Source: an uncultured Chitinophagaceae bacterium (lineage in GTDB: Bacteria; Bacteroidota; Ignavibacteria; UBA10030; UBA8401). Taken from it: a DNA stretch of 64,000 bases. This document shows, piece after piece, positions 5,024 through 56,867 of the stretch (the first letter of the stretch is position 1; every line of letters begins with the position of its first letter). The notes under the pieces are model-generated. The model worked only from the letters and a program-made list of their open reading frames with translations. It ran no database searches and was not told where the DNA came from. The DNA lies in contig CAYLMV010000003.1 of the NCBI GenBank assembly GCA_964384415.1, positions 6,840 through 70,839 on the forward strand. Reading direction: 5' to 3'. The translations under genes were made by a program, and so were the position numbers.

Positions 5024-5037
5024 TCGTCTCCCGAAAA

Positions 5038-5943: not shown

Positions 5944-6044
5944 TTGTGCTTTTCTTCTCTCTCTTTACAATATAAACGACCGATGACTGAGAGGCAAATA
6001 TGAACCTCAGGGTGATGCGATCACTCTTCCGAGGTTTTCAGCAG

Positions 6045-6107
6045 AACCTTCCGAAGGTTTTCTCTTGAGGAGGATCGATTGGATCCCAGGCAAACCTTCG
6101 GAAGGTT
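6045..6107. repeat. Inverted pair of the 15-bp near-palindrome AACCTTCCGAAGGTT / AACCTTCGGAAGGTT (copies at 6045-6059 and 6093-6107)
   Basis: Read directly in the pgk-rhomboid intergenic region. The same pair arrangement recurs at 8663-8743 and 58970-59047. Confidence 0.7.
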
Positions 6108-6130
6108 TCGGCCATTTGCTCACCGATTCT

Positions 6131-7330
6131 CTATTTCCGGTCCGTCAGGGCTGCTACTCCGGGAAGAACTTTCCCTTCAAGGAATTCAAGCGACGCTCCG
6201 CCGCCGGTGGAAACGTGAGTGACTGACTTCGCCATGCCCGCCTGCGTAATCGCTGCTGCTGAATCTCCCCCTCCAACAATGGTCGTCGTCCCTCGCTTCG
6301 TTGCTTCTACCAACGCGCCGCCGATGGCGTTCGTTCCAACGGCAAAATTCGGAAATTCAAAAACGCCCATGGGACCGTTCCAAACAACGGTTTTTGATTT
6401 CTTTATTTCTGCTGAGAATAGCTCAATCGTCGCCGGCCCGATGTCGAGAGCCTGCCAATCGGCCGGTATCTTGTCTTTTGCAACAACCTTCCGCTCGGCA
6501 TCGTTCTTGAATTCTTTCGCAACGACGCAATCGACCGGCAGCAGTAGTTTCACGGTCCTATTTTTCATGCCGTGGAGGATCTGACCCGCAAGCTCAACCT
6601 TGTCGGCTTCGAGCAGCGATTTCCCGATCTCTAATCCCTGCGCTTTGAAAAATGTGTACGCCATGCCTCCGCCGATCATCAGGGTATCAACTTTCGACAA
6701 GAGGTTCTGGATGACGTCGATCTTGCCGGATATTTTGGCGCCTCCGAGAATCGCGGCAAACGGACGGACCGGGTTTTCAACCGCGGCTCCGAGGTAGTCA
6801 AGCTCCTTCTGCATCAGCAATCCTGCAACCGACACGGAAACGAATTTGGTGATTCCCTCGGTCGACGCGTGTGCACGGTGGGCGCTGCCAAACGCATCGT
6901 TCACGTACACATCTCCGAGCTTCGCAAGCGATTTCGCAAACGCAGGGTCGTTCGCCTCCTCTTCGTTATGATACCGCAAATTCTCAAGCAGAAGGCATTC
7001 GCCGTCTTTGAGTTTTGCAGAGGCAGATTCTGCCGGTTCTCCGATGCAGTCTGAGGCAAAAAATACTTTCTGACCCAGGAGATGTTCCAGGCGGGCTGCC
7101 ACGGGCTTAAGACTGAACTCCGGTTTGGGTTTTCCTTTCGGACGGCCGAGATGGCTCATCAAGATCGCCTTCCCGCCGGCGGAAAGTATCTTCTTGATCG
7201 TTGGGAGCGATTCAACGATGCGTGTGTCATCGGTGATATTCTGCTTCTCGTCGAGCGGGACGTTGAAGTCGACGCGAACGAGCACTTTTTTCCCTTTTAC
7301 GTCGATGTCGTTGATGGTCAGCTTTTTCAT
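6131..7330 (-). CDS. pgk: Phosphoglycerate kinase
   Basis: 399 aa with canonical PGK motifs ([30 protein letters not shown]). Confidence 0.95.
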
Positions 7331-18910: not shown

Positions 18911-21142
18911 TCATGCCTCTTGTTTGCGGCGAAGCATGGAAATGATGAGTCCAAGAAACAACAGTATCGCACCCGACCAGACCAAATTCATGAACGGCTT
19001 AATGCTCGCTTCAACCATCAGCACTTCTCTCGGAGACGATTGTGAGTTTGGGCGAAGCACCTCGAGAGTCACCGTCGACTGATCGGAGCCCATTTGAACA
19101 TTCATACTCACCAGTTGTATCTTCGCCCCAAGGAGCTTCGACTCCGCCGGTTGATACGTCGTCCCGCCTTGTTGATCGTACACTGCAACCGGAGTTACCG
19201 TTTCCTTCCCCTGCGATGATGAGAGCGCCAGCACGGATCCAACCTGTACTCCGCCTCCTCCCGTCATCGCCTCCATCCCGTGCTTCCCCATGTCGAATTC
19301 CACGAACTTCGTCTGCACTCCCTGTATGTCGACGGTCTCTCCCTTCTTAATCGACACTCGCTCGCCGGCTTCTCCATTCGATCCGCCCGATTGTTCGAGC
19401 GAAACCGGAGACAGGTAAAGATCCCGTGTGATGAACGATTTGATATCGGGATTCCGCATGAGTCCCTGCTCACCCATGTCGGACATCACCGGAGAGAGTC
19501 TGAACTTTGCGCCGTCCCTTTCTGCATCCACATCGAAGGCGAACTTTTTTCCCCCTACAGGCCTGTTGCCCGTGTAGGTAAGATTGTAGCCGAAAACTTG
19601 CTGCGGCGAATTGAGCGTGAGGGCAACCTGCTGTTTGTGGCCGTACTTTCCCGATGCAAGAACCCCGAGGAAAAAGAGAGCCAATCCAATGTGGGCAATT
19701 TTGCCCCCCATCCATCGCGGGTCTCCCTTCGCGGTGACATACGCCATTTCGATATTGACAAAGAGCGCGAACGATGACGCGAACCCAAACAGAAGCATCA
19801 TAATATCATTAGCGCCGAGCTTAAACATGACGGCGGCAACGACAAGAGAAGCGGCGATCCATTTCAGAGACCTGCGAAAAGCGTGCGAACCCTCCTCGTT
19901 TTCCCATCGGAGAAGAAGGCTGTAGCCGATCAAAAGAGAAATGGCCACGGCGATGGGGAGGTTCATTGTATCGTAGAACGAACCCTCGACATTGGTTTTC
20001 GAGAAAAGGGGGAGACTCGTCCCGAACAAAACCACGGCCGATGAAGCCAGCAATGCGAACGATCCGAGGCTCGCCACAAAACCGCGTGAACGATATTTAA
20101 GGGGAGCCGGGTTGAGCCGAAGCCCGCGCCATCGGCTAAAGAACACTCCGAACCCGACAATCGCGAAGACTCCGAGAAAGGCAAGCAACAGAGAATAGAC
20201 CGCAGCGCCGGGGTCTGAAAACGAGTGGACGGATGAATCGCCAAGAACACCGCTCCTGGTAAGGAATGTGCTGTAGACGACCAAGAGGAATGCAAGGATC
20301 GCGAGGACAAAGTTCGTTCGAACAAGATTTCCGGTTCGCTTCTGTATCAACATCGTGTGCACGAGCGCCATCAGGACAAGCCATGGCACCAGCGACGAGT
20401 TTTCCACCGGATCCCAACCCCAGTATCCGCCCCATCCGAGGACACCGTACGCCCAATAAGCCCCGAGCATGATACCGAGCCCGAGAATCATGCCAGCGAA
20501 GAGAACCCAGGGGAAGGCGCTGCTCAGCCACTCGGTAAAATCCTTGCGCCACAACGCCGCTACCGCAAAACTGAACGGCACTGCCGTAACCGCAAAGCCG
20601 ATGAAGAGTACCGGAGGGTGGATAACCATCCAGAAATTCTGGAGAAGAGGATTGAGGCCTTTGCCGTCAAGCGGAACTTGGCCTGCCTGCATCTGTCCGG
20701 GAAAAGAATCCCATACGGTCCTGAACGGCGATTTGAAAAGGAGAAGCAGGACAAGAAACGTCTGTATCGAAACAAAAACGGCGAGGACGTGCGCCTCGAG
20801 TTTTCTCGACTTGGTGTAGTTCAAAAGGAAGAAACTCATGATGGCGGAACAGAAAGACCAGAAGAGAAAGCTTCCCTCCTGTCCTGCGTAGAATGTCGAG
20901 ACGAGATAATAAAGGGGCAGCGAGCGGTCGCTGTAGCTCCACACATACGCGAAGGAAAAATCGTGCAGAAGAATGCTCGACATCAGCAGCGCGCATGCTG
21001 CGATAACGCTTCCCCCGCTGAGGTAGAGAGCGTTTCTTCCGAGCTTTAAACGATCATGAACGCCGGAAGCAGTCTGATAGTACGACCACACCGCTACAAG
21101 ACCGCTCGCCAACGCTACTATGAGAACTGCCGTACCCGCCAT
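18911..21142 (-). CDS. ccmF: Cytochrome c-type biogenesis protein CcmF (system I haem lyase)
   Basis: 743 aa and polytopic. It carries the WWD-type motif WGGYWGWDPVENSSL and the conserved His residues of CcmF/NrfE. Confidence 0.85.
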   Translation of the reverse strand: MAGTAVLIVALASGLVAVWSYYQTASGVHDRLKLGRNALYLSGGSVIAACALLMSSILLHDFSFAYVWSYSDRSLPLYYLVSTFYAGQEGSFLFWSFCSAIMSFFLLNYTKSRKLEAHVLAVFVSIQTFLVLLLLFKSPFRTVWDSFPGQMQAGQVPLDGKGLNPLLQNFWMVIHPPVLFIGFAVTAVPFSFAVAALWRKDFTEWLSSAFPWVLFAGMILGLGIMLGAYWAYGVLGWGGYWGWDPVENSSLVPWLVLMALVHTMLIQKRTGNLVRTNFVLAILAFLLVVYSTFLTRSGVLGDSSVHSFSDPGAAVYSLLLAFLGVFAIVGFGVFFSRWRGLRLNPAPLKYRSRGFVASLGSFALLASSAVVLFGTSLPLFSKTNVEGSFYDTMNLPIAVAISLLIGYSLLLRWENEEGSHAFRRSLKWIAASLVVAAVMFKLGANDIMMLLFGFASSFALFVNIEMAYVTAKGDPRWMGGKIAHIGLALFFLGVLASGKYGHKQQVALTLNSPQQVFGYNLTYTGNRPVGGKKFAFDVDAERDGAKFRLSPVMSDMGEQGLMRNPDIKSFITRDLYLSPVSLEQSGGSNGEAGERVSIKKGETVDIQGVQTKFVEFDMGKHGMEAMTGGGGVQVGSVLALSSSQGKETVTPVAVYDQQGGTTYQPAESKLLGAKIQLVSMNVQMGSDQSTVTLEVLRPNSQSSPREVLMVEASIKPFMNLVWSGAILLFLGLIISMLRRKQEA

Positions 21143-21163: not shown

Positions 21164-22441
21164 CTAGAAACTTCTTTCAGTCCCACCCACGTCGATTTTT
21201 CCGTTAATATGTTTCGTCGCATCTATGATGTTGCCATTCGCGTCAACAATTCCCTGATGACAACCTCCCACGCCGCCGCATGAGCTCAGGGGCAGTGGTC
21301 CCAAATGGCCCTTCGGAGGAAGTCCATGACACGATCCGCATGCTGCTTCGCCCATCCCGCCGGTCCACATTGGAGAATAGTTGTTTCCAGTCATAACAGA
21401 GTCAACAAACATTACTTGATCTTGCGGTGATGCTCCCGCTTTTGTCACCTGCCAATTTCCGTGACAATACGTATTGCTGCACTGAGTCGCGCTGGCATTG
21501 TATGACGGATTCGGAACGAACGTGCCGGCAGCGGTGACCAGGTTCGCAAGAGTGTCGCCCATAATAACTGTCGCCGGTCCGCTGTTCAAATGGCCTGCGG
21601 CAAACACTTGGGCCGGAACGTTATGGCATTCCTGGCATTTCAATACTTTGCCGAACGTCGACCGCAAGTGTCCCTGGTGAGCGCCGACTCCTCTCAAGCT
21701 TGTGGACGAGTCGCCAGTGATACTCCTCGGAGGCGCCCAGGACGCGATGTCGTTCGCAGCTCCCGTGAAGTTACCATGACACGTGTTGCACGCTTCGGGA
21801 GATTTTTGATTTCCCTTCGCATCCACGTGGCAGCCCGAAGTCATGCAGCCGATGTTGCTTCCCGTCGGGATCCCATTGTAATTTGTGCCGTGGCATGTCT
21901 TGCATCCATCCATATTCCAATTACTCGCCATGATTTCAGCCCCGTGAAATGCCGCCGACGTCGGCTGAGTCCAACCGCTGGCGTGCGGATAAGCGTTATG
22001 GCATGTGTAGCAACTTACGCCGCTCGTGCCTCCCTGGAAATTCTGAGCATGGCAGGTCTGGCATGACTGCAGGTTGAAGCCGACTGTCTTTAACGCAACA
22101 CCATGGAAATTTGCCGCCGTCGTATCGAGCCACCCTGTCTGGTGAGGATACTGCGTATGACACTTGAAACAGCTGACACCGCTCGTTCCCCCCTGATACG
22201 TCGGTGCGTGACATTGCTGGCAATTCTTTGCGTTGAAGCTCACGCTCTTTAAATACGCGCCATGGAAATCTGTGGAGAGGCTGTCATCCCAACCTGTGCC
22301 ATGCACGGAAAGCGCCGGACCGGTGGGTGTCAAACCGTCCTTGTTCTTTAAATCACTGCACCCTGTGACCGCCAAGGCGAGCAGAAGAATGGAAGCTCCG
22401 AAGTACAAATGTGTTTTCATAGTTCGCTCATTTCTTTCCAT
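21164..22441 (-). CDS. Multihaem cytochrome c lipoprotein with three internal repeats
   Basis: Lipobox LLALAVTGCSD. At least 8 CxxCH motifs plus atypical CMTSGCH, CSNTYCH and CGGVGGCH. A ~45-aa unit (FHGAxLK...NCQQCHA...GGTSGVSCFKCH) repeats three times. An alternative start lies at 22420. Confidence 0.8.
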   Translation of the reverse strand: MERNERTMKTHLYFGASILLLALAVTGCSDLKNKDGLTPTGPALSVHGTGWDDSLSTDFHGAYLKSVSFNAKNCQQCHAPTYQGGTSGVSCFKCHTQYPHQTGWLDTTAANFHGVALKTVGFNLQSCQTCHAQNFQGGTSGVSCYTCHNAYPHASGWTQPTSAAFHGAEIMASNWNMDGCKTCHGTNYNGIPTGSNIGCMTSGCHVDAKGNQKSPEACNTCHGNFTGAANDIASWAPPRSITGDSSTSLRGVGAHQGHLRSTFGKVLKCQECHNVPAQVFAAGHLNSGPATVIMGDTLANLVTAAGTFVPNPSYNASATQCSNTYCHGNWQVTKAGASPQDQVMFVDSVMTGNNYSPMWTGGMGEAACGSCHGLPPKGHLGPLPLSSCGGVGGCHQGIVDANGNIIDATKHINGKIDVGGTERSF

Positions 22442-23645
22442 GACAGTACCCGCAGAAACCTATGCCCGCAACTCCCCCCATGGTATGAGGCTTCGCATTG
22501 GGGTCGGTATGGCACGCAAAGCATGTTGCCCCGGGATCGGTCATCCAGTTGCCGTCGACATTGGCCATGAACCCGCTTGGATGCGTCCTGGGGTTAGTAC
22601 CTTTCACGCCGTCCGGATCTACGTGGCACTTCATGCACGTCGGATCGGCTCCTTCAACATCATGACAAGATTGACAACTCTCAATTTCTCTTCGTGCGAG
22701 GCGGGCATGCTCGCCGCCGCCAGACCCGACACCGATGGTCACAAATCCGGCCGCTTCGTGTGATGTAGGAATTACTCCGCCCAGGGCCGCACTGCCGTTC
22801 TGGTGGCAGTCGTTGCAGAACGCCTGTTCGTGATGGCACACCTGGCAATCGGCAGCGTGTCCCCGCGCTTCGATGCCATGGGTGAAGCGGAAATTCATGT
22901 CGTGCACTGCCTGTCCCTTGAGCGCCTGCGACTTGTCGTTCCCCATTGTGCGCGGGGAGATCATTCCGATCATCTCTTTGCTCGACAGCGCCGTGAGATT
23001 CGATCCGTCGTGGCACTGCGCGCAATAGTTCTCACTGTGGCACATCGAACACTGAGAATCCATGGCGTTCAACCTAGCAAGCGTCGAATGCCCCTTTAGC
23101 CAGTTGCCCTGGTTATGAGAGGCCGGCCGTAACGTCGCAAGGTTGGTATGGCAGGTCTCGCATTGATTGGATTCCTTCGTGTTGTTGTGGCACGTATTGC
23201 AGGTGGCCATTGCCGGCATATTGGCGGCCGTCGCATAGTCAACTTTATCGACACCGGCATGGCACGTCGCGCATTCCATCTTCCCGTCCGTCACGTGTTT
23301 CTTATGATTGAACCGAACCTCGCGGGCTTCGCGCGGGAACGGCACGGGATTCTTTTCGTCGGAATGGCAATAGCCGCACGTCTTGGCCACTTGCTCCTCG
23401 TGGCAAGTCTGGCAGACGGCATGTCCCGGAATCATCTTGTCGGAAGACGATTCGCTCGTCGCCGACTCTGCATGACACGTAGCGCACTCCACGCCCAACT
23501 CGGCAACATGCTTTTGGTGAGAAAACTTTATCACTTTATCCTGATCGACCGATTTCTGAGTGCCATCTGCCGACCAGCTCCCGCCCAGGGCAACGATGAA
23601 CGTCGCCGCAAGAAACAATCCAAACGTAAGAATTTTGATTCTCAT
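22428..23645 (-). CDS. Periplasmic multihaem cytochrome c (14 CxxCH)
   Basis: Signal peptide followed by 14 CxxCH motifs counted in the 405-aa translation. Confidence 0.85.
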   Translation of the reverse strand: MRIKILTFGLFLAATFIVALGGSWSADGTQKSVDQDKVIKFSHQKHVAELGVECATCHAESATSESSSDKMIPGHAVCQTCHEEQVAKTCGYCHSDEKNPVPFPREAREVRFNHKKHVTDGKMECATCHAGVDKVDYATAANMPAMATCNTCHNNTKESNQCETCHTNLATLRPASHNQGNWLKGHSTLARLNAMDSQCSMCHSENYCAQCHDGSNLTALSSKEMIGMISPRTMGNDKSQALKGQAVHDMNFRFTHGIEARGHAADCQVCHHEQAFCNDCHQNGSAALGGVIPTSHEAAGFVTIGVGSGGGEHARLARREIESCQSCHDVEGADPTCMKCHVDPDGVKGTNPRTHPSGFMANVDGNWMTDPGATCFACHTDPNAKPHTMGGVAGIGFCGYCHGKK

Positions 23646-23654
23646 AGAGTTTCC

Positions 23655-24938
23655 TTAAAACCAGCTGAGATGATCACTGAACCAGTAGTTTACTTTTGCG
23701 AAGACCCGCACGTCGTTTGAGTAGAGCGGATTGTGCATCCATTGCAGCTGCAAATCGGTCGACAAGAGCGGAGACGGACGGTATGTCGCTCCGATACTGC
23801 CGTTGATAACCGTATTCTTCGGAGCGTTGTCGGACAACTGGTAGCTTGCGTACCCGAACCCGAGGTTTGGTACTATTTGCCGGTTCATCATTGGATACAC
23901 TGCTTGCACGGAAACACCGTTGAGATCCCCGGCATATCCGAAATTCTTTGTGTACGAGATGTTGACAATATCGTATGTGCCGCCGACCGTCAACCGCTGA
24001 CTGTTGTCGTCGGTGTACTGAACATCCGCAAAACGCGCGAAAGTGCGGAAGAGCGGAGAGAATTCATATTCAAGTCCTCCTTCAACCTCCTGCGTACTGC
24101 TCGTGTTGAAGACCGAGAAGATCGAGTTATAGGCAACGCGCGGCTCGCGGAAAAGATAGTCGACCGTGGCGGTCAGCGAAGTCATGATGCCGGCTCGGGC
24201 TTCCGCTTGCGCGCGGGAGATTCGTTCGAAGTTGAAATCGTAATCGGACCTCCCGTAGAGATCGATTTTATTAAGGAGACTGTAGCGGGCGTCGAAGCTT
24301 GCGTATTCTTCTTCGTCGGGAGAATAGGCGATGACCACCACATAGGGATTGAACAGCGAGTCGGCGCGGACCGCCGTGAACGGCTCCGGTTTCCGCGTCC
24401 GGTTCATGAAGCTGAGTCCGACGACAGCATTCTCCGCAGGCTCGTAGGTCAGTTGTCCGCCGTAGAGAGAGTTGTCCGCAAAATCTCTTTTCAAGATGAT
24501 ATCCCGAGACTGGATGACATTGTATCCGCCGTATGCGGTCAGCCCCAGCCGTTTGTCGAAGAGCATCACCTTTGCCACACCGCCATCCATCAATCCATTG
24601 CCCACCCCCGCAAAAACGTATTGGCGGCCCACGGTAACATCCGCAACGTCGGCGATCCCTCGCGCTCCGACGGTCAATGATGAGAGACGCAGCTCCGGAT
24701 CCGTGCCGATGGTGGTACCGAAATCTTTGGAGTACTGGAAATTTGTGTTGAAGGCAAAATGCGGCTGAGCAACATTGAACTGGACGTTTTCAAAACCTCG
24801 CATGTAATTCTGGTTGTCCAGGTCGGCGCTTCGCCCCTGCCATCCATAGAACGACGTCGTGAATCGCCCCGACATGAACTGCGCCGAGGCCGTCGCTGCC
24901 ATGAGAAGAATACAGAAGAGTAGTATTGTATATTTCAT
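23655..24938 (-). CDS. Outer-membrane beta-barrel protein (porin-like)
   Basis: Signal peptide MKYTILLFCILLMAATASAQ, alternating amphipathic beta-strands rich in Y/G/N, and a C-terminal aromatic residue (...HLSWF). Confidence 0.65.
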   Translation of the reverse strand: MKYTILLFCILLMAATASAQFMSGRFTTSFYGWQGRSADLDNQNYMRGFENVQFNVAQPHFAFNTNFQYSKDFGTTIGTDPELRLSSLTVGARGIADVADVTVGRQYVFAGVGNGLMDGGVAKVMLFDKRLGLTAYGGYNVIQSRDIILKRDFADNSLYGGQLTYEPAENAVVGLSFMNRTRKPEPFTAVRADSLFNPYVVVIAYSPDEEEYASFDARYSLLNKIDLYGRSDYDFNFERISRAQAEARAGIMTSLTATVDYLFREPRVAYNSIFSVFNTSSTQEVEGGLEYEFSPLFRTFARFADVQYTDDNSQRLTVGGTYDIVNISYTKNFGYAGDLNGVSVQAVYPMMNRQIVPNLGFGYASYQLSDNAPKNTVINGSIGATYRPSPLLSTDLQLQWMHNPLYSNDVRVFAKVNYWFSDHLSWF

Positions 24939-25078
24939 AGCGACAATTTCCTTTGCTCGTGTGAGAACAATAAAGACAAGGATTGTGCCATTTGTCCCCG
25001 AAACATTTCTAAACGTTTTGCATGGTTTCTTTCAAGCATATGAAACTTCCTTCCAAGTATCAAGAACAATACTACCCC

Positions 25079-25096
25079 ATTCCATAAAATAGGAAT
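25079..25096. promoter_or_regulatory. Palindromic motif ATTCC-ataaaata-GGAAT upstream of the porin/cytochrome operon
   Basis: Read directly, ~140 bp upstream of the porin start. A near-identical TTCC-N9-GGAAT element lies at 33038-33056. Confidence 0.35.
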
Positions 25097-25230
25097 CCCG
25101 CCTCATCAGGATGATGAAGCGGGATTGGTTGCGGTCTGGAGGCTTTGCCGAGCCTCGTGGGATAGACGCCAGCATGTAGGGTGCCGGCGGGGGAAGTATC
25201 GCTCCCGTGAGGAAGCGAATACTGTCGTTG

Positions 25231-25767
25231 TTACTTAGCTGCGATGGGATGCTTGATCTTGTCCCACGCTTCTTTGTACTTAAATTCCTTGTATGTTGGA
25301 CTCTTGCTGTTGTGACATTTAACACAAAGCTTCGGATCGTCTGCCGCCAGAACCAGGCCTGCGGCTTCCGCCTTTGCCTTGTCTTTCATGACCGGGATCG
25401 ACTTATAATCGGACCCGGGACCATGGCATGTTTCGCACTGGACACCATCTTCCTGCTTCAATGCACCGCTGATCGCTTTATCAGCACCGTATCCTGTCAC
25501 ATGGCACTCGAGACATTCGGGAGATTCCGCAGCCTTCGTCTTGAGTCCCTTTCCCTTCGCTATCTCATCTGCCTTCGGAGTCTGAAGCGTCTTGAATGCA
25601 CTTGCGTGTGCCGAACCTTTCCAGATATCGAATTGCTTTCCTGCTTTTTCGGTCTTATGGCAGACCGAACACATCGTCACTCCAACATACTTGTGCTGCG
25701 CCATCGTGGGTAACGCGACGCATAGCACGAGCGTCAGAACAATTGCACTCTCCACTAGTCGTTTCAT
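25231..25767 (-). CDS. Periplasmic tetrahaem cytochrome c
   Basis: 178 aa with a signal peptide and 4 CxxCH motifs (CSVCH, CLECH, CETCH, CVKCH). Confidence 0.8.
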   Translation of the reverse strand: MKRLVESAIVLTLVLCVALPTMAQHKYVGVTMCSVCHKTEKAGKQFDIWKGSAHASAFKTLQTPKADEIAKGKGLKTKAAESPECLECHVTGYGADKAISGALKQEDGVQCETCHGPGSDYKSIPVMKDKAKAEAAGLVLAADDPKLCVKCHNSKSPTYKEFKYKEAWDKIKHPIAAK

Positions 25768-26046: not shown

Positions 26047-27525
26047 TTACTTGTTCGCATGCTGTTTTCTCTCTATCCGTCTGATCAGCAGATACAGTGA
26101 CGTTGCTAAAATGGTTATGATGATCGTCGCAACGCCTAAACCAATTCGTCTGAAGTAATACTCGTCTATGGCTGATTGACCTTCGCCTGAGACGAGCACG
26201 GCAACGGCGAGCCCCTTATGCACAACGTCGCCGAATTTCTGTTCGTTGAAAGAGTGGACCATGGTCCGCGATTGCAGCCGAGCCTGCCTCACATCACGAA
26301 GCTTGAACTTCGCCTCCGAAATTTCCATCCCCTTCTGTTCGGCTTCGTCGACAAGGTTTCGTCCTTTTAGCTCCGCATCCTTAAGGCTGTCGGCGAGCTG
26401 CCGCATGGCAAGAGCGACTTTGTAACCGAGCGAATTATCGTCCCCTTTGTGGCACTTACCACACAATGCGCCTGGAGCAACTCCGAGGAGGCTATCAGTC
26501 GCAGCGAGGATTTCATGGTTGCCGTGGCATGTTTCGCACTCAGGCAGCTTACGATCGTCGAACGCTTTCTTGTGCGGACTCGATGAGAACAGGTCCGCGT
26601 TCAATGCATGGCAGGTCCCGCATACTTTGGAAACCGACTCAACTCCCGGAGGCGCGGCTCCGTGATTTCCGTGGCAGCTGTTGCATGCGGGAGCGGAGAC
26701 ATCATTTTTCTGAAGAAGTGCAATGCCGTGTACGCTGCGGGCAAATTTGACATACTGGTCGGATGGAATTCCGTATTTCTTCATCAAATCGGAATCACTG
26801 TGGCAATGGGCGCACGTCGACGGGATGTTGGTAGGATATACTTTTGACTTCAAGTCGGCCGCCGAGCGTATATCATGACTGCCGTGGCAGCTTGCGCATT
26901 CTGCGGTATGCGCGTCACCCTTGGCATTCCGCATTCCGTGAACACTCGTCTTGTACTTATCCAGCTGGTCGACTGCAATCGAAGGGTTATAGGTCCTCAT
27001 GTATGTTGCGTTCGCATGACATTTCGTGCATGTCTTGACCACGTTGAGCGGATAGACCGGAGAGGCAGCATCTTTCACGTGAACAATCCCGTGCGCCGAG
27101 TGACAGGTGATACACTGGACAATGTGTTCTCTCCCGTTCGTTGCGAGCTTGCCGTGAACGCTCGTCTGAAGGTCTTCCCACTGGTTCGTCGGGAGCTGCG
27201 AACCGTACCGCCTCATCGCTTCCCCATCCGCATGACAGCTTGCGCACATCTTCGAAATTTCATCGCCCTTGGGAACGCCGATGAATCCTTCCTTCTTGCT
27301 CATGGCGACTTCGGCATCATCGGATTTGGAATTCCCTCCGTGACAATCTGCACACGACAATCCCTTCGCTGCATGCACATCGTGCTTGAACATTTTCGAC
27401 GGAGCATCTTCCATCGCCTCATGGCATGTCACGCACTGGTCTCCGGCGAATAGCCTCGGCTGCGATGCAATGATGATCGCCGAGATCGGAATGAGCAGAG
27501 AAAGTTGAAGTCTCATGAGGCCCAT
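26047..27525 (-). CDS. Multihaem cytochrome c (11 CxxCH) with C-terminal TM anchor; subunit of the Rieske/cyt b complex
   Basis: 11 CxxCH motifs, an N-terminal signal peptide and a C-terminal hydrophobic helix ([18 protein letters not shown]). Its start overlaps the cyt b stop. Confidence 0.8.
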
Positions 27526-28592
27526 CCGATGATGGTGAGAAGAATAATGTAGAAGACGACAAACATTCCGATGTACGTTATGAAGCGGTTCTTCTCGCCC
27601 CGCGCGCTCTTCCTGTCCCAGAACGGAACGAGCATCCAGAGGAAGCCTGCAAGTCCGAAGAGCAGGATTCCGAACACTTCGCCGTCGATGAACCCCAATT
27701 TAGCGGGGATCATTTTGAGGGATTGAAACATAAAGAGGAAGTACCACTCCGGTCGTATGCCGGCAGGAGCCGCTGCAAACGCATCAGCTTTCTTCCCCAA
27801 TTCCCAGGGGAAAAATACTGCAAGGATGGCGAGAAGATTCAGAACGATGAGCCACAGAAGCAGATCACGGAGTACGAAATTCGGAAAGAAGGGCATCGTC
27901 TTCGGCGGTACGCCAGTCTGGGTTTCGGACGATTGCGGTTCGCTCATCCCCTGTCGTTGGATGAGCAACAAATGGATTCCGAGAAGGACGGTGAAAATCC
28001 CCGGAAAGACTGCTACGTGAAATCCGAAGAACCGCGAGAGGGTTGCGCCGGTAACTTCTTCGCCGCCGCGAAGGAACATCATGATCGGTTTTCCGACCAC
28101 AGGAACAACTCCGGCGATGTCGGTGCCGACCTTCGTCGCAAAATATGCCAGCTCGTTCCACGGCAAAAGATAGCCGCTGAACCCAAATCCGAGCATCAGG
28201 AAAAACATCAGCATCCCGGTAAGCCAAGTGAGCTCGCGCGGTTTCCGGTACGACTTCTCGAAAAAAACGCTGAACATGTGAATCATCGCCGTCAGGATAA
28301 AGAGGTTGGCCGTCCAGCTGTGGATGGACCGGATCAGCCATCCAAACTGCACTTTCGACATGATGAACTGGATGCTTTCAAACGCAAACTCCTCGCTTCC
28401 TTTGTAATACATCAGCAGCATTATTCCCGTAACAACCTGGATGATGAAAAGGAAGAGCGAAACGCCGCCAAAATAATACCAAATAGAGTGGCGGTGTACC
28501 GGCACGTATTTCTTTCCCATAAACTTAACGAGGTCGTCCAGCATGACCCGTTCATTGATCCAATCGTAGAGAGCCGTTAATCTTTTCTTCAT
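27513..28592 (-). CDS. Cytochrome b (bc/b6-type, fused cyt b + subunit IV)
   Basis: 359 aa and polytopic with cyt b signatures ([25 protein letters not shown]). A 4-bp overlap with the Rieske gene stop indicates translational coupling. Confidence 0.85.
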
Positions 28593-29044
28593 GATTTTTT
28601 CGATATAAAGACATCTCCCCCTTGAACGTTGACTTTGTACTCTTCAAGCGGCCGGGGAGGCGGACCGGAAACGTTCCTGCCGTTGAAATCGTACTTCCCG
28701 TTGTGACAGGCGCACCAGATCAGCCCGTAGTCTTTGCGGTATTGTACCGTACAATCGAGGTGTGTGCATGTTGCCGAGAATGCTCTCAGCTCATCCTTCG
28801 CGGTGCGCAGAAGAATCACCGGTTTCGTTCCAAACTTGATGATCGTTCCGCTGTCCTTGGGGATGTCGGTCAGCTTGCCGGCCTTCACGCTGGAAACTTC
28901 GGCTTCTGCCTGGGTCGGCGGCTTCAGGTATGCGAGAACGGGATAAAGGATGGCGCCAATCCAGGCCAGGAGACTTCCGCCGAGGACGAACTTCAGGAAA
29001 TCTCTCTTATTCTGTTTCAGGTCAACAGGAGGATGTTCGGTCAT
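28589..29044 (-). CDS. Rieske [2Fe-2S] iron-sulfur protein
   Basis: CTHLDC...CACHNG Rieske boxes and an N-terminal TM/Tat-like anchor. Confidence 0.85.
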
Positions 29045-29080: not shown

Positions 29081-30565
29081 TCAGGAACCGCTGTGGCAAT
29101 CGCTGCAATTCATCTGCTTCCACGCATCGCCGACGTCGACAGGGTGCTTGTACTCGATGCCGGTGAGAGATATTCTAAGGCTGTCTTTCTCGAGCTTCTG
29201 AGCAAGAATCACGTGGCAGGTATTGCAGTCTCTCGACAGGACTTTCCCGTCGTCGCCGACATGCTTGCCGTCGTGACAGCGAAAACATCCCGCAGAATAC
29301 AAGTGACCGATGTTGTTCGGATAATGTTTCCACGAAACATTCATCTCGGGGAAGAAATTCTCGCCGTAGATTCGTTTCACGTGTTCGATGGCTGTATCAA
29401 TGCCGGCCGCCATCGTGCGGGAAATCTCGGGATAGCGCTGCGCGTAGAAATCGCGGATGGTGAAGCCGATGCTGTCCATCGCCCCCGCTTCTGTACCGTA
29501 CGGCCTCGTCAGCGCGTCGACGGCCGTCGCCTTGATGGAAGGAAGTGCGGGATCAATCCAACCCAGCGTCATTGCCTGGTTCACCGATTCGTTTGGCGGA
29601 TGATAGATGTGCGTCGGCCGGTTGTGGCAGTCGATGCAATCCATCCGCCGTTTTTCGCCTGCGGCGATCTGTGCGTCGGTCGCAGAGCCGTCGTTCATCG
29701 TATAGGTCACAACAGTCCCGTCGGGCCGCTTCGACTGGACCCACGGAATCACCTGGCGCTGCGAATCAATCGCAACGTAGGTGATTTTGTTGCTGATGTT
29801 CATGTGCCAATGAATGCCGGAGGTCGGACCCGTCTCGCTGTTTCCTCCGCCGATCTTCATCAGGAGCGAAATCCACCATTGAGTATTCTTTTCATCGGAA
29901 AGGAAATAGTTCTTGACCACCTGTTTTTCCGAATAAAATTGTTTCGGCCAGTGGCATCGTTCACAGGTCTCCTGAGCCGGACGAAGGTTTCGTACCGGCG
30001 TTTCGATGGGACGCGAATACTTATGGAAGATCACCGAATAGACCTGATATGCTCCGGACAATTTCGATTTGACGTACCAGTCGGCACCGGAGCCGACGTG
30101 ACATTCAGCGCAAGAGACTCTCGCATGGGGAGAGTAAAGATAAGCGGTGTATTCGGGCTTCATAACGCTGTGACAAACCTCGCCGCAGAACTGAACCGAC
30201 TCCGTGAATTCATACGCTTGATAGCTTCCAAACGCGGAACACATGAGGAGCACCAGGACAAGAGATCCGAAAAAGAGGAACATCGACCGCTGATGCGGGT
30301 CGTTAAGATCGATGCGGGGAAATCGGTTCGCCGTCGTTTGAACCCGTCTCCGCTCGAGAATGACGCCGACAATAGCGATCGCCAATCCCATAAGAAGAAA
30401 GCCGGGAAGAATGACGAAAGCTATGATTCCCATGTACGGGCTTTGGCGTCCGGCGAAGGCTTCCAGGAGAAAGAGGAACAGGATCAGCCCAAAGCTGACG
30501 AGCGCAATTCCTGCGCCGGCAAAACTCGTAGGGTTAAAAAAAGATTTTGGAACAAGCCTTTTCAT
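29081..30565 (-). CDS. Inner-membrane NapC/NirT-type multihaem cytochrome (7 CxxCH, 3 N-terminal TM helices; ImcH-like architecture)
   Basis: 494 aa with three hydrophobic helices in the first ~110 aa and then 7 CxxCH motifs. It lies 36 bp upstream of the Rieske gene. Confidence 0.7.
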   Translation of the reverse strand: MKRLVPKSFFNPTSFAGAGIALVSFGLILFLFLLEAFAGRQSPYMGIIAFVILPGFLLMGLAIAIVGVILERRRVQTTANRFPRIDLNDPHQRSMFLFFGSLVLVLLMCSAFGSYQAYEFTESVQFCGEVCHSVMKPEYTAYLYSPHARVSCAECHVGSGADWYVKSKLSGAYQVYSVIFHKYSRPIETPVRNLRPAQETCERCHWPKQFYSEKQVVKNYFLSDEKNTQWWISLLMKIGGGNSETGPTSGIHWHMNISNKITYVAIDSQRQVIPWVQSKRPDGTVVTYTMNDGSATDAQIAAGEKRRMDCIDCHNRPTHIYHPPNESVNQAMTLGWIDPALPSIKATAVDALTRPYGTEAGAMDSIGFTIRDFYAQRYPEISRTMAAGIDTAIEHVKRIYGENFFPEMNVSWKHYPNNIGHLYSAGCFRCHDGKHVGDDGKVLSRDCNTCHVILAQKLEKDSLRISLTGIEYKHPVDVGDAWKQMNCSDCHSGS

Positions 30566-30642: not shown

Positions 30643-30718
30643 GTTGTTGTCAGTTGTCAGTTGTCAGTTGTTAGTTTTTGGTTGTTGGTTGTTCATTGTT
30701 GATTGTTCATTGTTGATC
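30643..30718. repeat. Tandem repeat tract: (GTTGTCA)x3-4, GGTTGTT x2 and a 14-bp direct duplication GTTCATTGTTGAT(T/C) overlapping the CbcL-like stop codon
   Basis: Read directly: gttgtcagttgtcagttgtcagttgttagtttttggttgttggttgttcattgttgattgttcattgttgatcc. Confidence 0.7.
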
Positions 30719-32881
30719 CTTCTGCGTCGACCGGTCCCGATTAATGTCTTCCATCAACTTTCGCACTTCCTCCGCCTTGATCCGCTGCAATTCCAGCGGG
30801 TGTTCGTCGTGCATTTCTTCCTCTGTGATCGTCCCTTTGAAGAAGGCAAGGTTGATCGGATACACATCCGGATTGAAAATCACAAAATAGAAGTGCCATA
30901 TAATAATAGAGAGCGTCGCGAGCCAGGCTTCATAATAATGGACGGTGCCTGCAACATCCCACCAGAGCTTGCCTATAATTCCAAGAAATCTGTTGTCAAA
31001 CCAGAGAATGAAGCCCGTCGCTCCCATCACGATCGTCCCCCACACCAGCGCCCAGTACTCGCTCTTCTCCACATAGCTGAACCGGTCGAACTGCGGTCTG
31101 ACCTTGCTCAATCCGATATTGTACTTCGCAACTGCGATGGCGTCGTGAAGGTCTTTCAATTTCGGCAGTAAGTCATGGACGAGCTGTTTTCCCCTGGGGA
31201 CAAACAGCACATAATAGATGTGGTAAAGACCCGCCGCGATCAGGACCAGGCCGGCGGCGCGATGAAGGAGGCTTCGAATGCCGAATACCGCGGGGCTGAG
31301 CGAGCGGATCGGGCCGACCCACCACGCATCCGGGAACTTCAGCATGAAGCCTGTTATCACGAGCGTCGTGAAGCTGATGATCAACGTGCCATGTTGCAGC
31401 CGTTCGCTCAACGTCATCCGGACATACAGTGAATGGCCGAGTTCTTCTTCATAGAGCGTTCCCCGGCGTACTCGCAGCTTCCTTTTGGATTTCTTTACGA
31501 AGTCCAGGGCATTGTGAATGAACATTCCGCCGATCGTGATGACGATGAGGAGGATATATCCGGATGTTACATAATAGAGCATATCGTTGTCTTTGGCTGA
31601 GACGATGATATGCACCGAGCCCTTCGTGAAATTCTCGTTCGCTCCCGGGTGACATTTTCCGCATGTCACTGCAAGGTTGGCCTTATTCACCCTCGATTTG
31701 GGATTGCTCGACGGCAGGATATCATGGATCCCGTGACAACTCGCGCAGTTGGCGACTTCCACGCTTCCGGCTTTCGTCGCAAGACCGTGATAGCTATCGT
31801 CAAAACTTTTTCCGCGCTCCGCTGCAAGGCCGAATTTTTCGTTCAGCCGCACCGAGTTGTGGCACGGCGAACAGACCTGGGCAGATACATGAAGCCTTGA
31901 AACGGGCGAGTTCGGGTCCTTGGGCGCGAGAATCTTGTGCTCTCCGTGGCAATCGGTGCACACGGGCGCGTCTTTATTGCCGGCGAAGAACGCAGAGCCG
32001 TGAATGCTTCCTCTGTATTCCGTTGCAATCGAAGCATGACATTTCGCGCATGTGTTGGGAATATTCAGCCTGTTCACCCGCGATGTCGGGTCTCCCCCCT
32101 TCTTCATCTCGTGGCTCCCGTGGCAATCGACGCAATTGGCCGCTCTTCCATTCCCGCCCTTCAGGGCAACGCCGTGCACGCTTTGTTCATACGACAGGAC
32201 GAAGCTCGCTGTGGGGGCATCGGCCGGCGTCTGTTTGTTCTTCACATGACAGGTGATGCATACCTGCTCCTGCGCGATCTTCAGCTGCGCGGAATCGGTC
32301 CCCGCTTTGACTGCGGTGATATTCTTGGAATGGCAGGCAACGCATGTCGGGGCGTTGAGGTTTCCGGCGAAAAGAGATTTTCCATGAGCCGACGTCAGGT
32401 ATTTCTCTTTCTCAGCCGTGTGGCATTGGCCGCAGCTCTGCACAACGTTTGAAGAATTGAATTTTGTGCCGGGCGTTTTCGGGGACTGGACGTCGTGTTT
32501 TCCGTGACACTCCTTGCACATCTGGCTCTCGTTCCTGCCCGCCTGCAGAAGCAGCGTACTATGGAATGGATGCTTCGGTTCTACATTCTTATGGCATGTT
32601 TCGCACTGGACGGGAGTGATATGTTCCTTGTGCGGCACATTCCCGGGATCAAAACCCGTGTGGCAGGCGACGCAGACCAGTTTCTTGTGCGTCGAATGAC
32701 TCAGAACTTCATCGTTCACGAACAATGAAACAGTCTTTCCGTTGCGCTCGGTAGACAATGTGCTGTCGGAGTGGCAGGCTAAACACTCTTCTTTCGTCTG
32801 CGATCTCAGCAGCGAGGACGAAGCAAGGAGTAGGAGAAAGAGAATCAGAGATTGGAAGAAAAGAGTTCGGGTCTTAAGCAT
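30707..32881 (-). CDS. Fusion of a multihaem cytochrome c (13 CxxCH) with a C-terminal dihaem cytochrome b-type membrane domain (CbcL-like)
   Basis: 724 aa. A signal peptide is followed by 13 CxxCH motifs. The C-terminal ~270 aa has 5 TM helices with conserved His in TM1, TM2, TM3 and TM5, an FdnI/HydC-like arrangement. Confidence 0.75.
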   Translation of the reverse strand: MLKTRTLFFQSLILFLLLLASSSLLRSQTKEECLACHSDSTLSTERNGKTVSLFVNDEVLSHSTHKKLVCVACHTGFDPGNVPHKEHITPVQCETCHKNVEPKHPFHSTLLLQAGRNESQMCKECHGKHDVQSPKTPGTKFNSSNVVQSCGQCHTAEKEKYLTSAHGKSLFAGNLNAPTCVACHSKNITAVKAGTDSAQLKIAQEQVCITCHVKNKQTPADAPTASFVLSYEQSVHGVALKGGNGRAANCVDCHGSHEMKKGGDPTSRVNRLNIPNTCAKCHASIATEYRGSIHGSAFFAGNKDAPVCTDCHGEHKILAPKDPNSPVSRLHVSAQVCSPCHNSVRLNEKFGLAAERGKSFDDSYHGLATKAGSVEVANCASCHGIHDILPSSNPKSRVNKANLAVTCGKCHPGANENFTKGSVHIIVSAKDNDMLYYVTSGYILLIVITIGGMFIHNALDFVKKSKRKLRVRRGTLYEEELGHSLYVRMTLSERLQHGTLIISFTTLVITGFMLKFPDAWWVGPIRSLSPAVFGIRSLLHRAAGLVLIAAGLYHIYYVLFVPRGKQLVHDLLPKLKDLHDAIAVAKYNIGLSKVRPQFDRFSYVEKSEYWALVWGTIVMGATGFILWFDNRFLGIIGKLWWDVAGTVHYYEAWLATLSIIIWHFYFVIFNPDVYPINLAFFKGTITEEEMHDEHPLELQRIKAEEVRKLMEDINRDRSTQKDQQ

Positions 32882-33179: not shown

Positions 33180-34106
33180 ATGGATCGCAGATCATTTCTT
33201 CTTCGGGCCGGGGGAGTTGCACTTCTTGCCGGCACTCGCACTTCGAAAGCCAGTCTCAAATGGGTGGGGGAGAAATTGTCCGAGGACAAAGCGATGGCGG
33301 GTTATGACCTTGTTGCAGTAAAGGGAGGCGAGCCCGAGGTCATGTTCCAGAATGGAATTCAGGCCATGGGGGGGATGAGAGCGTTCGTCAAAAAAGGGCA
33401 GAAAGTTGTGATCAAGCCGAACATCGGATGGGATGTGTCCCCCGAACGCGGCGGAAACACAAATCCGAAACTTGTTGCTGAAATTGTGAAGCAATGCCGC
33501 GATGCGGGAGCAAAAGAAATTGTTGTCTTTGATCACACGTGCGATGATTGGCAGCGGACGTACAAAAACAGCGGAATATCTTCCGCGGTCTCGGATGCAG
33601 GCGGGAAAATGGCTCCGGGCAATACGGAAGGATATTTCCAGGAGGTTACGATAGCGGGGGCAAAGAACCTGACGAAAGCAAAAGTCCACGAGGTCATTCT
33701 CAGCTCCGATGTCTTCATCAACATCCCCGTCCTAAAGAATCACAACTCCGCCACGCTCACGATGTCTATGAAGAACCTGATGGGCGTAGTATGGGATCGC
33801 CGCGATTGGCATGCCAACGATCTGCACCAATGCATCGCCGACTTCCCCCTTTATCGGAAGCCGGACCTGAACGTGCTGGACGCTTACTACGTCATGACAC
33901 GAAACGGGCCTCGCGGCGTTTCGCAAGCCGACGTGATAACGATGAAAACTCAACTCATCTCCACGGACCTCGTAGCGCTTGATACTGCCGGCGCAAAGCT
34001 TTTCGGCCTTGACCCTCAGACGATTCGTTACATCCAGATTGCCGCCGAGCAGAAAATAGGCCGTGCCGATCTTGATCATCTCAACATCAAACGTATCTCT
34101 CTCTGA
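33180..34106 (+). CDS. DUF362 domain protein with Tat signal peptide
   Basis: A twin-arginine motif (MDRRSFLLRAGGVALLAG) followed by DUF362-like ferredoxin-associated domain features. Confidence 0.6.
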   Translation: MDRRSFLLRAGGVALLAGTRTSKASLKWVGEKLSEDKAMAGYDLVAVKGGEPEVMFQNGIQAMGGMRAFVKKGQKVVIKPNIGWDVSPERGGNTNPKLVAEIVKQCRDAGAKEIVVFDHTCDDWQRTYKNSGISSAVSDAGGKMAPGNTEGYFQEVTIAGAKNLTKAKVHEVILSSDVFINIPVLKNHNSATLTMSMKNLMGVVWDRRDWHANDLHQCIADFPLYRKPDLNVLDAYYVMTRNGPRGVSQADVITMKTQLISTDLVALDTAGAKLFGLDPQTIRYIQIAAEQKIGRADLDHLNIKRISL

Positions 34107-34109
34107 CCT

Positions 34110-35636
34110 GTGCGTCATCTCAGAACGATAAGAGTGAGCGTCGCGTCGGTAGTCTTCATACTCGCGGCGCTCTTTTTTTTGGATTTCATCGGCGCCATCC
34201 CGCCGCGGATCATCTCCGCCCTCCTCGCCTTCCAAATGGGCCCGTCGGTTCTCTCCGTAATCGGCGCGCGCAGCATCGCGTTGTTCGGTTTGCTTTTCGT
34301 GATAGGGACGACGCTGCTCATGGGGCGTGTGTATTGTTCACACCTTTGTCCGCTGGGTACGCTTCAGGATATTTTCATTTGGACCGCAAAGAAAAAGTAT
34401 ACGCACCGCCGCTACCCTTTTAGCAAGCCCGCGTACCTCATTCACTACGCACTCACCGCCATCATCGTCGGATGCGCAATCGGAGGGAGCATGGTGCTGC
34501 TGAATCTGTTTGAACCGTTCAGCAACTTTGGAAGAATTTCTACCGATCTTGCCCGTCCCCTCGTCATCCTGCTCAATAACGCCATTGCGTCTGTATTGTC
34601 GAGGAATCAGGTGTATTTGTTCTACGTAGTTCCGCTCGACGGACTCGCTATTCCCGTCATTATTGCGTCGGCAGTCTTTCTCGGGGGCTTGTACTTGCTG
34701 AGCTTCAAATACGGACGCTTCTTCTGCAATACGATGTGTCCCGTCGGAGGGATTCTGGGCCTTTTCTCTCGTGTTTCCTTCCTCCATATCACTATCAATC
34801 ATAAAGAATGCATCGATTGCGGTCTTTGCGAGAGGGTCTGCCGCGCGCGCTGCATTGACGCCAAGGACCGGAAGATTGATTTCGCGGCCTGTGTCGGATG
34901 CTTCGATTGCATTGCTTCCTGCCCGAATGAAGGCATGACGTACAGCGTGCGCTGGAATAAGACTACCCATCCTGAACCACTGAATGCCGGGAGACGAAAA
35001 GTCATGCTCGGGGCTGGGGCCGGAATGATGCTTTTATTGAAAGCTCCGCCTCCGATCTCTGAGATGAGCGTTGGAAATAGAACTCCGGTTGTACCCCCGG
35101 GCGCAAAGAGCATCGAGCGATTCACACACCATTGCACGGCATGTCATCTCTGCATAAGCTCATGCCCATCGCACGTCCTGCAGCCATCGTTCTTCGAGTT
35201 CGGCCTCGCAGGCATCATGCAGCCGAGGATGGACTATTCCGTCAACTATTGCACGTACGATTGCACTCTCTGCGGACAAGTGTGCCCCACCGGCGCCATC
35301 GCACAGCTCTCGCAGGCCGAAAAGAAACTGGTACAAATCGGAAAAGCGCATTTCACAAAAGAAGACTGCATCGTCGAAACGAAGAAGACCGACTGCGGAG
35401 CTTGCTCGGAGCACTGTCCAACGAAAGCTGTCCACATGATTCCCTATGGGAAGCTCTTCCTCCCGGAAGTTGACAATGAGTACTGCGTCGGATGCGGCGC
35501 GTGCGAGCATGCCTGTCCGACAAAACCGCGGAAAGCCATCTCAGTGCAATCGAATGTGATCCACGCCGTGGCAAAGAAGAGAGACGACGTTAAACTCCAG
35601 ATTCCCGCAGAAACCCCGCAAGATTTCCCGTTTTAA
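34110..35636 (+). CDS. Membrane-bound polyferredoxin, NapH/MauN/RdxA family ([4Fe-4S] x4)
   Basis: 508 aa. TM helices carry CSHLCP/CNTMCP motifs. Four CxxCxxCxxxCP clusters follow (CIDCGLCERVC, CVGCFDCIASCP, CTACHLCISSCP, CTLCGQVCP, CGACSEHCP, CVGCGACEHACP). Confidence 0.7.
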   Translation: MRHLRTIRVSVASVVFILAALFFLDFIGAIPPRIISALLAFQMGPSVLSVIGARSIALFGLLFVIGTTLLMGRVYCSHLCPLGTLQDIFIWTAKKKYTHRRYPFSKPAYLIHYALTAIIVGCAIGGSMVLLNLFEPFSNFGRISTDLARPLVILLNNAIASVLSRNQVYLFYVVPLDGLAIPVIIASAVFLGGLYLLSFKYGRFFCNTMCPVGGILGLFSRVSFLHITINHKECIDCGLCERVCRARCIDAKDRKIDFAACVGCFDCIASCPNEGMTYSVRWNKTTHPEPLNAGRRKVMLGAGAGMMLLLKAPPPISEMSVGNRTPVVPPGAKSIERFTHHCTACHLCISSCPSHVLQPSFFEFGLAGIMQPRMDYSVNYCTYDCTLCGQVCPTGAIAQLSQAEKKLVQIGKAHFTKEDCIVETKKTDCGACSEHCPTKAVHMIPYGKLFLPEVDNEYCVGCGACEHACPTKPRKAISVQSNVIHAVAKKRDDVKLQIPAETPQDFPF

Positions 35637-51895: not shown

Positions 51896-51953
51896 ATACC
51901 CCTCTTTATAGGTCGTTGTGCATTGTTTTCTGTAAGAATTCTCGATTGAATGC

Positions 51954-53879: not shown

Positions 53880-53891
53880 GTTGAGGCCTTT

Positions 53892-56618: not shown

Positions 56619-56867
56619 GGTAAGACTCCCTGATTGATCCCCAAAAGCGGGCATACGTGAGACGAATATTTGGGAAAGTGTCCCGGAATGACCCCCAACT
56701 GCGGCTTTACGTCTTGCGAAGATCTAGAAAGGTGCGAACATTGTCAAGCGGAATTTGCGGATAAGAAAATCCTCGGGAATGATTTTTACAGCACGGGAAC
56801 TTTTGGAACTCAGGTTTCTGATCCGTCAACCCGACCGACAACCCGAGAACTATAGATGCCATACCTT

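Follow-up and report, generated by a model that had tools for sequence, protein, structure and literature searches.

The locus described here lies on the minus strand of a 64,000-nucleotide (nt) stretch of DNA (contig CAYLMV010000003.1 of assembly GCA_964384415.1, positions 6,840 to 70,839), referred to below as the window, from an uncultured Chitinophagaceae bacterium. Three adjacent open reading frames (ORFs) encode, in transcription order, a predicted outer-membrane beta-barrel, a 14-haem cytochrome and a cytochrome with a lipobox. This module had been picked out by a first-pass annotation made from the letters alone, and the positions of the three genes, their order and the count of 14 CXXCH motifs were all confirmed. 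The three genes probably encode a porin-cytochrome complex (Pcc) that would carry electrons across the outer membrane. The module consists of the following features:

23655 to 24938, minus strand: porin-like outer-membrane beta-barrel (ORF, 427 aa; Sec signal peptide; 22 predicted strands)
22428 to 23645, minus strand: periplasmic 14-haem c-type cytochrome (ORF, 405 aa; 14 CXXCH; Cytochrome c7/c3 domains)
21164 to 22441, minus strand: outer-membrane lipoprotein cytochrome (ORF, 425 aa; lipobox Cys28; 11 candidate haem sites)
21827 to 22297, minus strand: three tandem 53-aa di-haem units within the lipoprotein (self-alignment; alignment with relatives)
25035 to 25126, minus strand: intergenic control region with a terminator-like hairpin and a sigma-70-like promoter match (consensus matches only)

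The genes are closely packed. The barrel stop and the ATG of the 14-haem gene are 9 nt apart (TAA GGAAACTCT ATG), instead of the 10 bp reported earlier, and a GGA sits just upstream of this ATG. The lipoprotein gene had been described as starting before the preceding stop; this is true of its first ATG (22441), which produces a 14-nt overlap with the 14-haem cytochrome gene, and not of an alternative in-frame ATG at 22420 (MKTHLYF...), which lies 7 nt past the TGA. With the later start the mature protein is unchanged and the signal peptide is of the classical lipoprotein kind. A c554-type cytochrome gene and the barrel gene are separated by 292 nt, and in this gap a 15-bp-stem terminator-like hairpin with a T-rich tail (25126-25094, minus strand) is followed by the sigma-70-like promoter match (25063-25035). 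Because the hairpin and promoter match precede the barrel gene, they suggest a separate transcription unit in which the barrel, 14-haem and lipoprotein genes, and possibly a CcmF-like gene 21 nt downstream of the lipoprotein gene, would be co-transcribed. The three ORFs are not chance, judging from the number of homologues of the barrel and the 14-haem protein and from the invariant CXXCH motifs. Plus-strand ORFs overlapping the three genes (e.g. 23733-24680) were dismissed as shadows of conserved minus-strand genes. Scans of the window for tRNAs and for Rfam families gave no matches.

The barrel belongs to a sizeable family. In a 90%-clustered database there were 220 homologues, essentially all from metagenome-assembled genomes (MAGs) of Bacteroidota/Ignavibacteria, including a cluster representative 100% identical to the window barrel, although a look-up of the exact barrel sequence gave no match. 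Nearly all of those with a name are called 'hypothetical protein', and one JGI entry is called 'Gram-negative porin'. The barrel profile matched 433 representatives at E ≤ 1e-3 in a 50%-clustered library of 1.84 billion proteins, and those listed at full length were approximately 400-460 aa long. Synteny was examined at 63 loci, obtained by scanning genomes of GTDB species representatives with two peptide patterns. A 14-haem gene followed the barrel in 61 of the 63 loci, a 3-4-haem c554-type gene lay upstream in 56, and a third cytochrome gene was present downstream in 54; the shortfalls were mostly at loci truncated by a contig end. All 22 fully flanked loci, whose barrels share 29-83% identity, showed the same sequence of small cytochrome, barrel, 14-CXXCH cytochrome and 7-motif cytochrome, and the middle cytochrome always had exactly 14 CXXCH motifs in 400-443 aa.

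The adjacency of barrel and cytochrome extends to three more distant relatives (KSB1, L068 and L069). In candidate division KSB1 (L066/L067, 8001-10960), the genes that follow a 397-aa barrel encode a 12-haem cytochrome and a 4-haem lipoprotein of 138 aa. This is a minimal form of the module from outside Bacteroidota, and its neighbours are a sigma-54 activator, a rhodanese, NrfD/4Fe-4S genes and two CbcL-like genes. In L068, the barrel is followed by a 14-haem protein and the lipoprotein gene is missing. Upstream of this barrel (4529-6682) is a 717-aa 7-haem cytochrome with a type IX secretion system (T9SS) C-terminal sorting domain instead of a lipobox, which would be an alternative export route for an extracellular cytochrome. 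Because the pairing of barrel and cytochrome appears obligatory and the outer cytochrome would be exported by two different routes, these loci offer strong comparative evidence for a trans-outer-membrane conduit.

The barrel itself has a cleavable signal peptide (..ATASA|QF), one Cys, no haem motifs and a C-terminus ending in ..LSWF. It matched no family at E ≤ 0.01 in Pfam or NCBIfam, where models for MtrB/PioB, general porins and FadL are expected, though not confirmed, to be present, and the family profile matched none of the solved structures by PDB sequence, MtrB included. The homology to a substrate-specific porin or FadL-type channel that the first-pass annotation had named as a counter-indication was thus looked for and not found in any of these searches. 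AlphaFold2, given a 34-sequence alignment, modelled the barrel with pLDDT 79.9 and pTM 0.69. The model has 22 long strands, the first at residue 20, no plug domain, periplasmic turns of 2-7 aa and three longer outward loops (141-155, 183-207 and 265-281). Identification as a substrate porin, FadL or a TonB receptor was rejected, given the lack of family matches, the lack of a plug domain and the strands running from residue 20. Standard geometry for 22 strands gives an estimated C-alpha diameter of ~40 Å and a free lumen of roughly 29 Å (~36 Å by the same estimate for 26 strands); a lumen too narrow for a cytochrome, the other objection raised beforehand, was not predicted.

When the model was compared with the PDB by Foldseek, the top match was the 24-strand barrel of the FimD usher (TM-score, given as TMq, of 0.56; usher matches 8-10% identical). 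FimD ushers pass folded proteins. General and substrate-specific porins with 16-18 strands were also matched, at E of ~1e-9 to 1e-10, which lends something to the alternative that the barrel is an ordinary diffusion channel; their TM-scores were low (0.3-0.5), and every match had only 8-14% identity. From the top rank of the usher, the lower porin scores and these identities, the fold is predicted to be a large generic barrel outside the substrate-porin families. Two of the outward loops contain invariant motifs, R191-D-S-L-F-x-P198 and N271-S-I-F-x-x-F277. These loops, 183-207 (~24318-24392, minus strand) and 265-281 (~24096-24146, minus strand), carry the two most conserved motifs of the family, RxDSLFNPY and AYNSIFSVFN. 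Both were modelled at pLDDT <50 and are candidates for cytochrome contacts or for a constriction of the lumen.

The 14-haem protein has exactly 14 CXXCH motifs in 405 aa, or ~27 aa per haem, compared with 25.1 aa per haem in MtrA (Arbour et al.). Its N-terminus, MRIKILTFGLFLAATFIVALGG, is a signal peptide with no Cys and no lipobox. There were 891 homologues, and in a 35-sequence alignment all 14 CXXCH motifs, 11 further His and one Met were invariant. The N-terminal part resembles ACIII ActA. Within NCBIfam, the protein had only HmcA/QrcA/c7-type matches far below their cut-offs and no match to TIGR03508 (DmsE/MtrA). Its potential linear reach is about 117-143 Å. The protein appears dense enough in haem to thread the 22-strand barrel, and it may be physically inserted there.

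The lipoprotein cytochrome has the lipobox LAVTG|C with Cys28, and the lipobox is kept in the lipoproteins of relatives. Its haem motifs are eight CXXCH, two CX4CH and one CX5CH (CGGVGGCH); together they take up all 22 cysteines outside the lipobox, giving 11 candidate haem sites. TIGR01904 scored 35.6 bits against a cut-off of 27, and the CxxxxCH/CxxCH domain PF09698 was also above its cut-off. PF22113 (MtrC/MtrF domain II/IV) reached 27.9 bits with a cut-off of 30, and TIGR03507 did not match. The earlier description of this protein as built from three internal repeats was right about the repeats and too broad about their extent. Self-alignment placed the three di-haem units at residues 49-100, 102-153 and 155-205, so that they span residues 49-205, the N-terminal ~40% of the protein, and no repeats make up the C-terminal 220 residues.

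The first and second units share 31 of 52 residues, and the second and third share 19 of 51. The first two are 60% identical in protein and 62% in DNA, and the extra copies are old. Most relatives have a single di-haem unit, 7 CXXCH/CX4CH motifs and a mature protein of ~250-290 aa. Three units are found in the window lipoprotein and in the closest relative (L003, 83% barrel identity), two in L052, and three by motif count or four by alignment in L048. The KSB1 lipoprotein, with 4 CXXCH in 138 aa and an N-terminus resembling a unit, is apparently just two di-haem units.

The module lies at the distal end of a minus-strand strip of about 14 kb, in the order CbcL-like, ImcH-like, Rieske/cytochrome b/11-haem, c554-type, hairpin and promoter match, the three Pcc genes and CcmF-like. 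The genes outside the module are the following:

30707 to 32881, minus strand: CbcL-like fusion, 724 aa, with a 13-haem periplasmic domain and a C-terminal b-type cytochrome membrane domain (PF01292)
29081 to 30565, minus strand: ImcH-like inner-membrane cytochrome, 494 aa (CX3CH plus 6 CXXCH; NapC/NirT region, PF03264)
26047 to 29044, minus strand: Rieske protein (28589-29044), cytochrome b (27513-28592) and 11-haem cytochrome (26047-27525), from ORFs, haem motifs and Pfam
25231 to 25767, minus strand: periplasmic 4-haem c554-type cytochrome, 178 aa (PF13435, 74.6 bits)
18911 to 21142, minus strand: CcmF/NrfE-family haem lyase-like membrane protein, 743 aa (PF01578, PF16327)

The ImcH-like protein has hydrophobic segments at residues 12-40, 41-73 and 92-115, a CGEVCH at residue 127 followed by 6 CXXCH motifs, and PF03264 over residues 97-185. 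Geobacter ImcH has three transmembrane helices, a NapC/NirT-like region and seven haem motifs, the first of them CXXXCH (PMC4251993). The window protein shares this published architecture and is likened to ImcH by architecture, not by sequence identity to GSU3259; family models label it only NrfH/NapC-like. The membrane domain of the CbcL-like protein is a four-helix b-type cytochrome. CbcL-like homologues adjoin the module in most related loci and in KSB1, and some relatives carry a pair of them with as many as 19 haems. The inner-membrane partners are modular across relatives: most loci have CbcL-like and ImcH-like genes, and 25 of the 63 have the Rieske/cytochrome b genes. In the window, the Rieske, cytochrome b and 11-haem genes overlap by 4 and 13 nt, and the 11-haem cytochrome has a C-terminal membrane anchor. 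The set resembles a bc-type complex in which a multihaem wire serves as the cytochrome c subunit.

The 4-haem c554-type protein is a conserved upstream partner and a probable periplasmic shuttle. The CcmF-like protein scored 262.7 bits with TIGR00353, below the cut-off of 569. Its gene is near the module in 18 of the 63 loci, directly downstream in close relatives and absent or elsewhere in most others, and no further ccm genes were seen in the window. It is possibly a dedicated lyase for the atypical CX4CH/CX5CH haem sites. Neighbouring genes in the window encode PFOR, acetyl-CoA transferase, ferredoxin and alanine dehydrogenase. The region 33180-35636 (plus strand), which adjoins the cytochrome strip on its upstream side and is divergently oriented, encodes a DUF362 protein and a 508-aa poly-ferredoxin-like membrane protein, and this pair also flanks the cluster in a 74%-identical relative (L001). 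The region 51227-58688 (minus strand) has a lower GC content (0.46 vs 0.52 overall) and three large ORFs of 641, 920 and 606 aa with no Pfam match and essentially no NCBIfam match, beside a 222-aa protein with a T9SS sorting tail.

Taken as an electron-transfer pathway, the strip would work as follows. At the inner membrane, the adjacent ImcH-like and CbcL-like cytochromes, the Rieske/cytochrome b/11-haem complex or both would oxidise menaquinol, and the 4-haem c554-type protein would relay the electrons across the periplasm. They would then enter the 14-haem cytochrome threaded through the 22-strand barrel and exit via the 11-haem surface-anchored lipoprotein to insoluble Fe(III)/Mn(IV) oxides, humic substances or an electrode. 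Outward flow is favoured because of the ImcH/CbcL-type partners and the anaerobic-heterotroph neighbours. The conduit proposed by the first-pass annotation is thus supported by the 22-strand barrel, the lack of porin homology and the adjacency of barrel and 14-haem gene across the family.

Several points weigh against this interpretation. The three long outward loops of the barrel are highly conserved and modelled with low confidence, and they could constrict or plug the lumen. AlphaFold2 modelled the 14-haem protein poorly (pLDDT 53.8, with only residues 33-145 confident), and this model was judged too poor for a fold search or for statements on shape. The residues after the lipobox, CSDLKNKD, match the Bacteroidota lipoprotein export signal (C-X-K-(D/E)2 or SDDDD) only loosely, and surface exposure of the lipoprotein is therefore uncertain. 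CbcL/MtoC-type proteins have been found in both metal reducers and metal oxidisers (PMC6295460), so electrons may flow in either direction. Finally, the Ignavibacterium-type Pcc with which the module is compared is itself only a genomic prediction, and the proposed orthology with the proteins of Ignavibacterium album and Geobacter rests on architecture, on lineage and on published OmbB-like porins in Ignavibacteria (PMC7399161).

A more far-reaching version of the conduit interpretation is that the Ignavibacteria/Bacteroidota barrel family is an independently evolved porin-cytochrome solution instead of a diverged OmbB, the Geobacter porin. The 14-haem wire, with its ActA-like N-terminus, would be long enough to span both the membrane and most of the periplasm, the extracellular end would be tuned by adding or removing the 53-aa di-haem cassettes, and, coupled directly to the Rieske/cytochrome b complex, the system could form a complete respiratory chain to or from minerals. 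The cassettes range from one to four units in Ignavibacteria/Bacteroidota relatives, two make up the entire KSB1 lipoprotein, and in one lineage a T9SS-exported cytochrome takes the place of the lipoprotein. We regard this version as rather doubtful. If true, such a chain, not characterised before, would belong to a group that is very abundant in soil and sediment.

Porin-cytochrome conduits are reversible in principle. Another possible explanation is that the complex runs inward, with extracellular Fe(II), a cathode or a syntrophic partner as the electron donor and with the Rieske/cytochrome b proteins and the quinone pool as the destination; MtoAB/PioAB-type systems have been proposed to work in this way. 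The Rieske/cytochrome b genes with their 11-haem subunit are directly upstream and accompany the module in the 25 loci noted above, and homologues of CbcL, MtoC and MtrH occur in Fe(II) oxidisers as well as in reducers (PMC6295460). However, the ImcH-like and CbcL-like proteins correspond to Geobacter quinol oxidases for outward transfer (PMC4251993), the papers cited here describe cultured Ignavibacteria as Fe(III) reducers, and the PFOR, acetyl-CoA transferase, ferredoxin and alanine dehydrogenase genes fit an anaerobic heterotroph. Genes for a terminal oxidase, for carbon fixation or for a nitrate reductase were not found in the window either. Inward flow is unlikely on this evidence.

That the barrel is an ordinary diffusion or uptake channel with no threaded cytochrome, through which a soluble substrate (a chelated metal, a sulfur or selenium species or a humic analogue) would reach the periplasm to be reduced there, is very improbable: the conserved long loops could form a constriction and Pcc clusters also occur in organisms that do not respire metals (Shi et al., PMC4245776), but besides the poor structural agreement with porins, the 22 strands exceed those of diffusion porins, no porin family model matches, the adjacency of barrel and cytochrome is absolute across phyla, and the third gene encodes a lipoprotein cytochrome, or a T9SS-exported one in L068, which points to a cytochrome outside the cell.

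Soils, sediments, aquifers and bioelectrochemical reactors commonly harbour Ignavibacteria-related Bacteroidota, whose mineral respiration is inferred largely from clusters of this kind. The window is an unusually complete predicted chain at a single locus, with quinol oxidases, periplasmic shuttle, outer-membrane conduit and haem lyase. The barrel family is invisible to current annotation since no curated model exists, and with a family model built from the barrel alignment, the potential for extracellular electron transfer would be easier to detect in metagenomes. Differences between relatives in the number of di-haem cassettes amount to a natural experiment on chain length versus electron transfer. 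The module in the window leaves current understanding unchanged.

Among known systems, the first-pass annotation had named MtrB/MtrA/MtrC as the analogue. The Shewanella MtrCAB complex (and MtoAB/PioAB) is similar in that a multihaem wire is sheathed by a beta-barrel and contacts a surface lipoprotein cytochrome. In contrast to the window, its gene order is mtrC-A-B, and MtrB/MtoB/PioB have 28 predicted trans-membrane motifs (PMC4245776) instead of 22 strands. The barrel and the lipoprotein had no MtrB/PioB or OmcA/MtrC match at E ≤ 0.01 in NCBIfam, where the presence of these models is expected and unconfirmed, and the DmsE/MtrA model TIGR03508 weakly matched neighbouring cytochromes only. 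Membership in MtrB/PioB and DmsE/MtrA was rejected on the curated models, the PDB profile search and the count of 22 strands.

The nearest analogue appears to be the Geobacter sulfurreducens complex OmbB-OmaB-OmcB, and not MtrCAB, because the gene order (porin, periplasmic multihaem cytochrome, lipoprotein multihaem cytochrome) is the same and the barrel is small. The Geobacter barrel is likewise much smaller than MtrB, and the two systems also share the CxxxxCH/CxxCH domain of the outer cytochrome and inner-membrane partners of the ImcH and CbcL types. OmaB has 8 haems and OmcB 12, compared with 14 and 11 in the window, and of the two complexes only the Geobacter one has been purified and shown to pass electrons (Liu et al. 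2014, via PMC4245776). In the survey by Shi et al. (2014), Pcc porins are predicted to have 18-22 strands, and the periplasmic cytochromes contain 5-14 haems (PMC4245776); Pcc outer-membrane cytochromes are lipoproteins and often have atypical CX3-15CH motifs. The window module agrees with these features in its gene order and spacing, its strand number, its periplasmic protein with a Sec signal, no lipobox and a CXXCH count between 5 and 14, and its lipoprotein with atypical motifs.

The closest published counterpart in lineage is that of I. album, where the four-gene cluster IALB_1840-IALB_1837 includes a 400-aa 14-haem periplasmic cytochrome (PMC4245776). IALB_1840 is the associated periplasmic cytochrome, IALB_1839 the porin-like protein and IALB_1837 an outer-membrane cytochrome with atypical haem motifs (PMC4245776). 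The Ignavibacterium proteins were distant outliers of all five Pcc groups (Shi et al., PMC4245776). The two clusters, both of them genomic predictions, share the four-gene architecture, the 14-haem periplasmic cytochrome and the broad lineage (Ignavibacteria/Bacteroidota). I. album was absent among the barrel matches listed and from the 63-locus scan, which used two peptide patterns only; a profile of the most distant Ignavibacteria barrels gave at least 120 matches, all unnamed or from MAGs, with no I. album among the matches listed. OmbB-like Pcc clusters have been reported in Ignavibacteria MAGs (PMC7399161, PMC6137239, PMC6344600), and later metagenomic papers noted that CXXCH-containing modules have been gained and lost among closely related organisms.

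The window differs from I. album in coming from a higher-GC (52%) uncultured 'Bacteroidota bacterium' lineage, in the physical linkage of the module to ImcH-like, CbcL-like and Rieske/cytochrome b genes, and in an outer cytochrome with two extra di-haem units and 11 candidate haem sites, where most relatives have 7 motifs. The features that had been supposed to set the module apart are already properties of the published Ignavibacterium-type Pcc (PMC4245776). The type of system, even its 14-haem hallmark, was published in 2014, and the window is a well-preserved further example with one local peculiarity, three tandem di-haem units in its outer cytochrome where most relatives have one.

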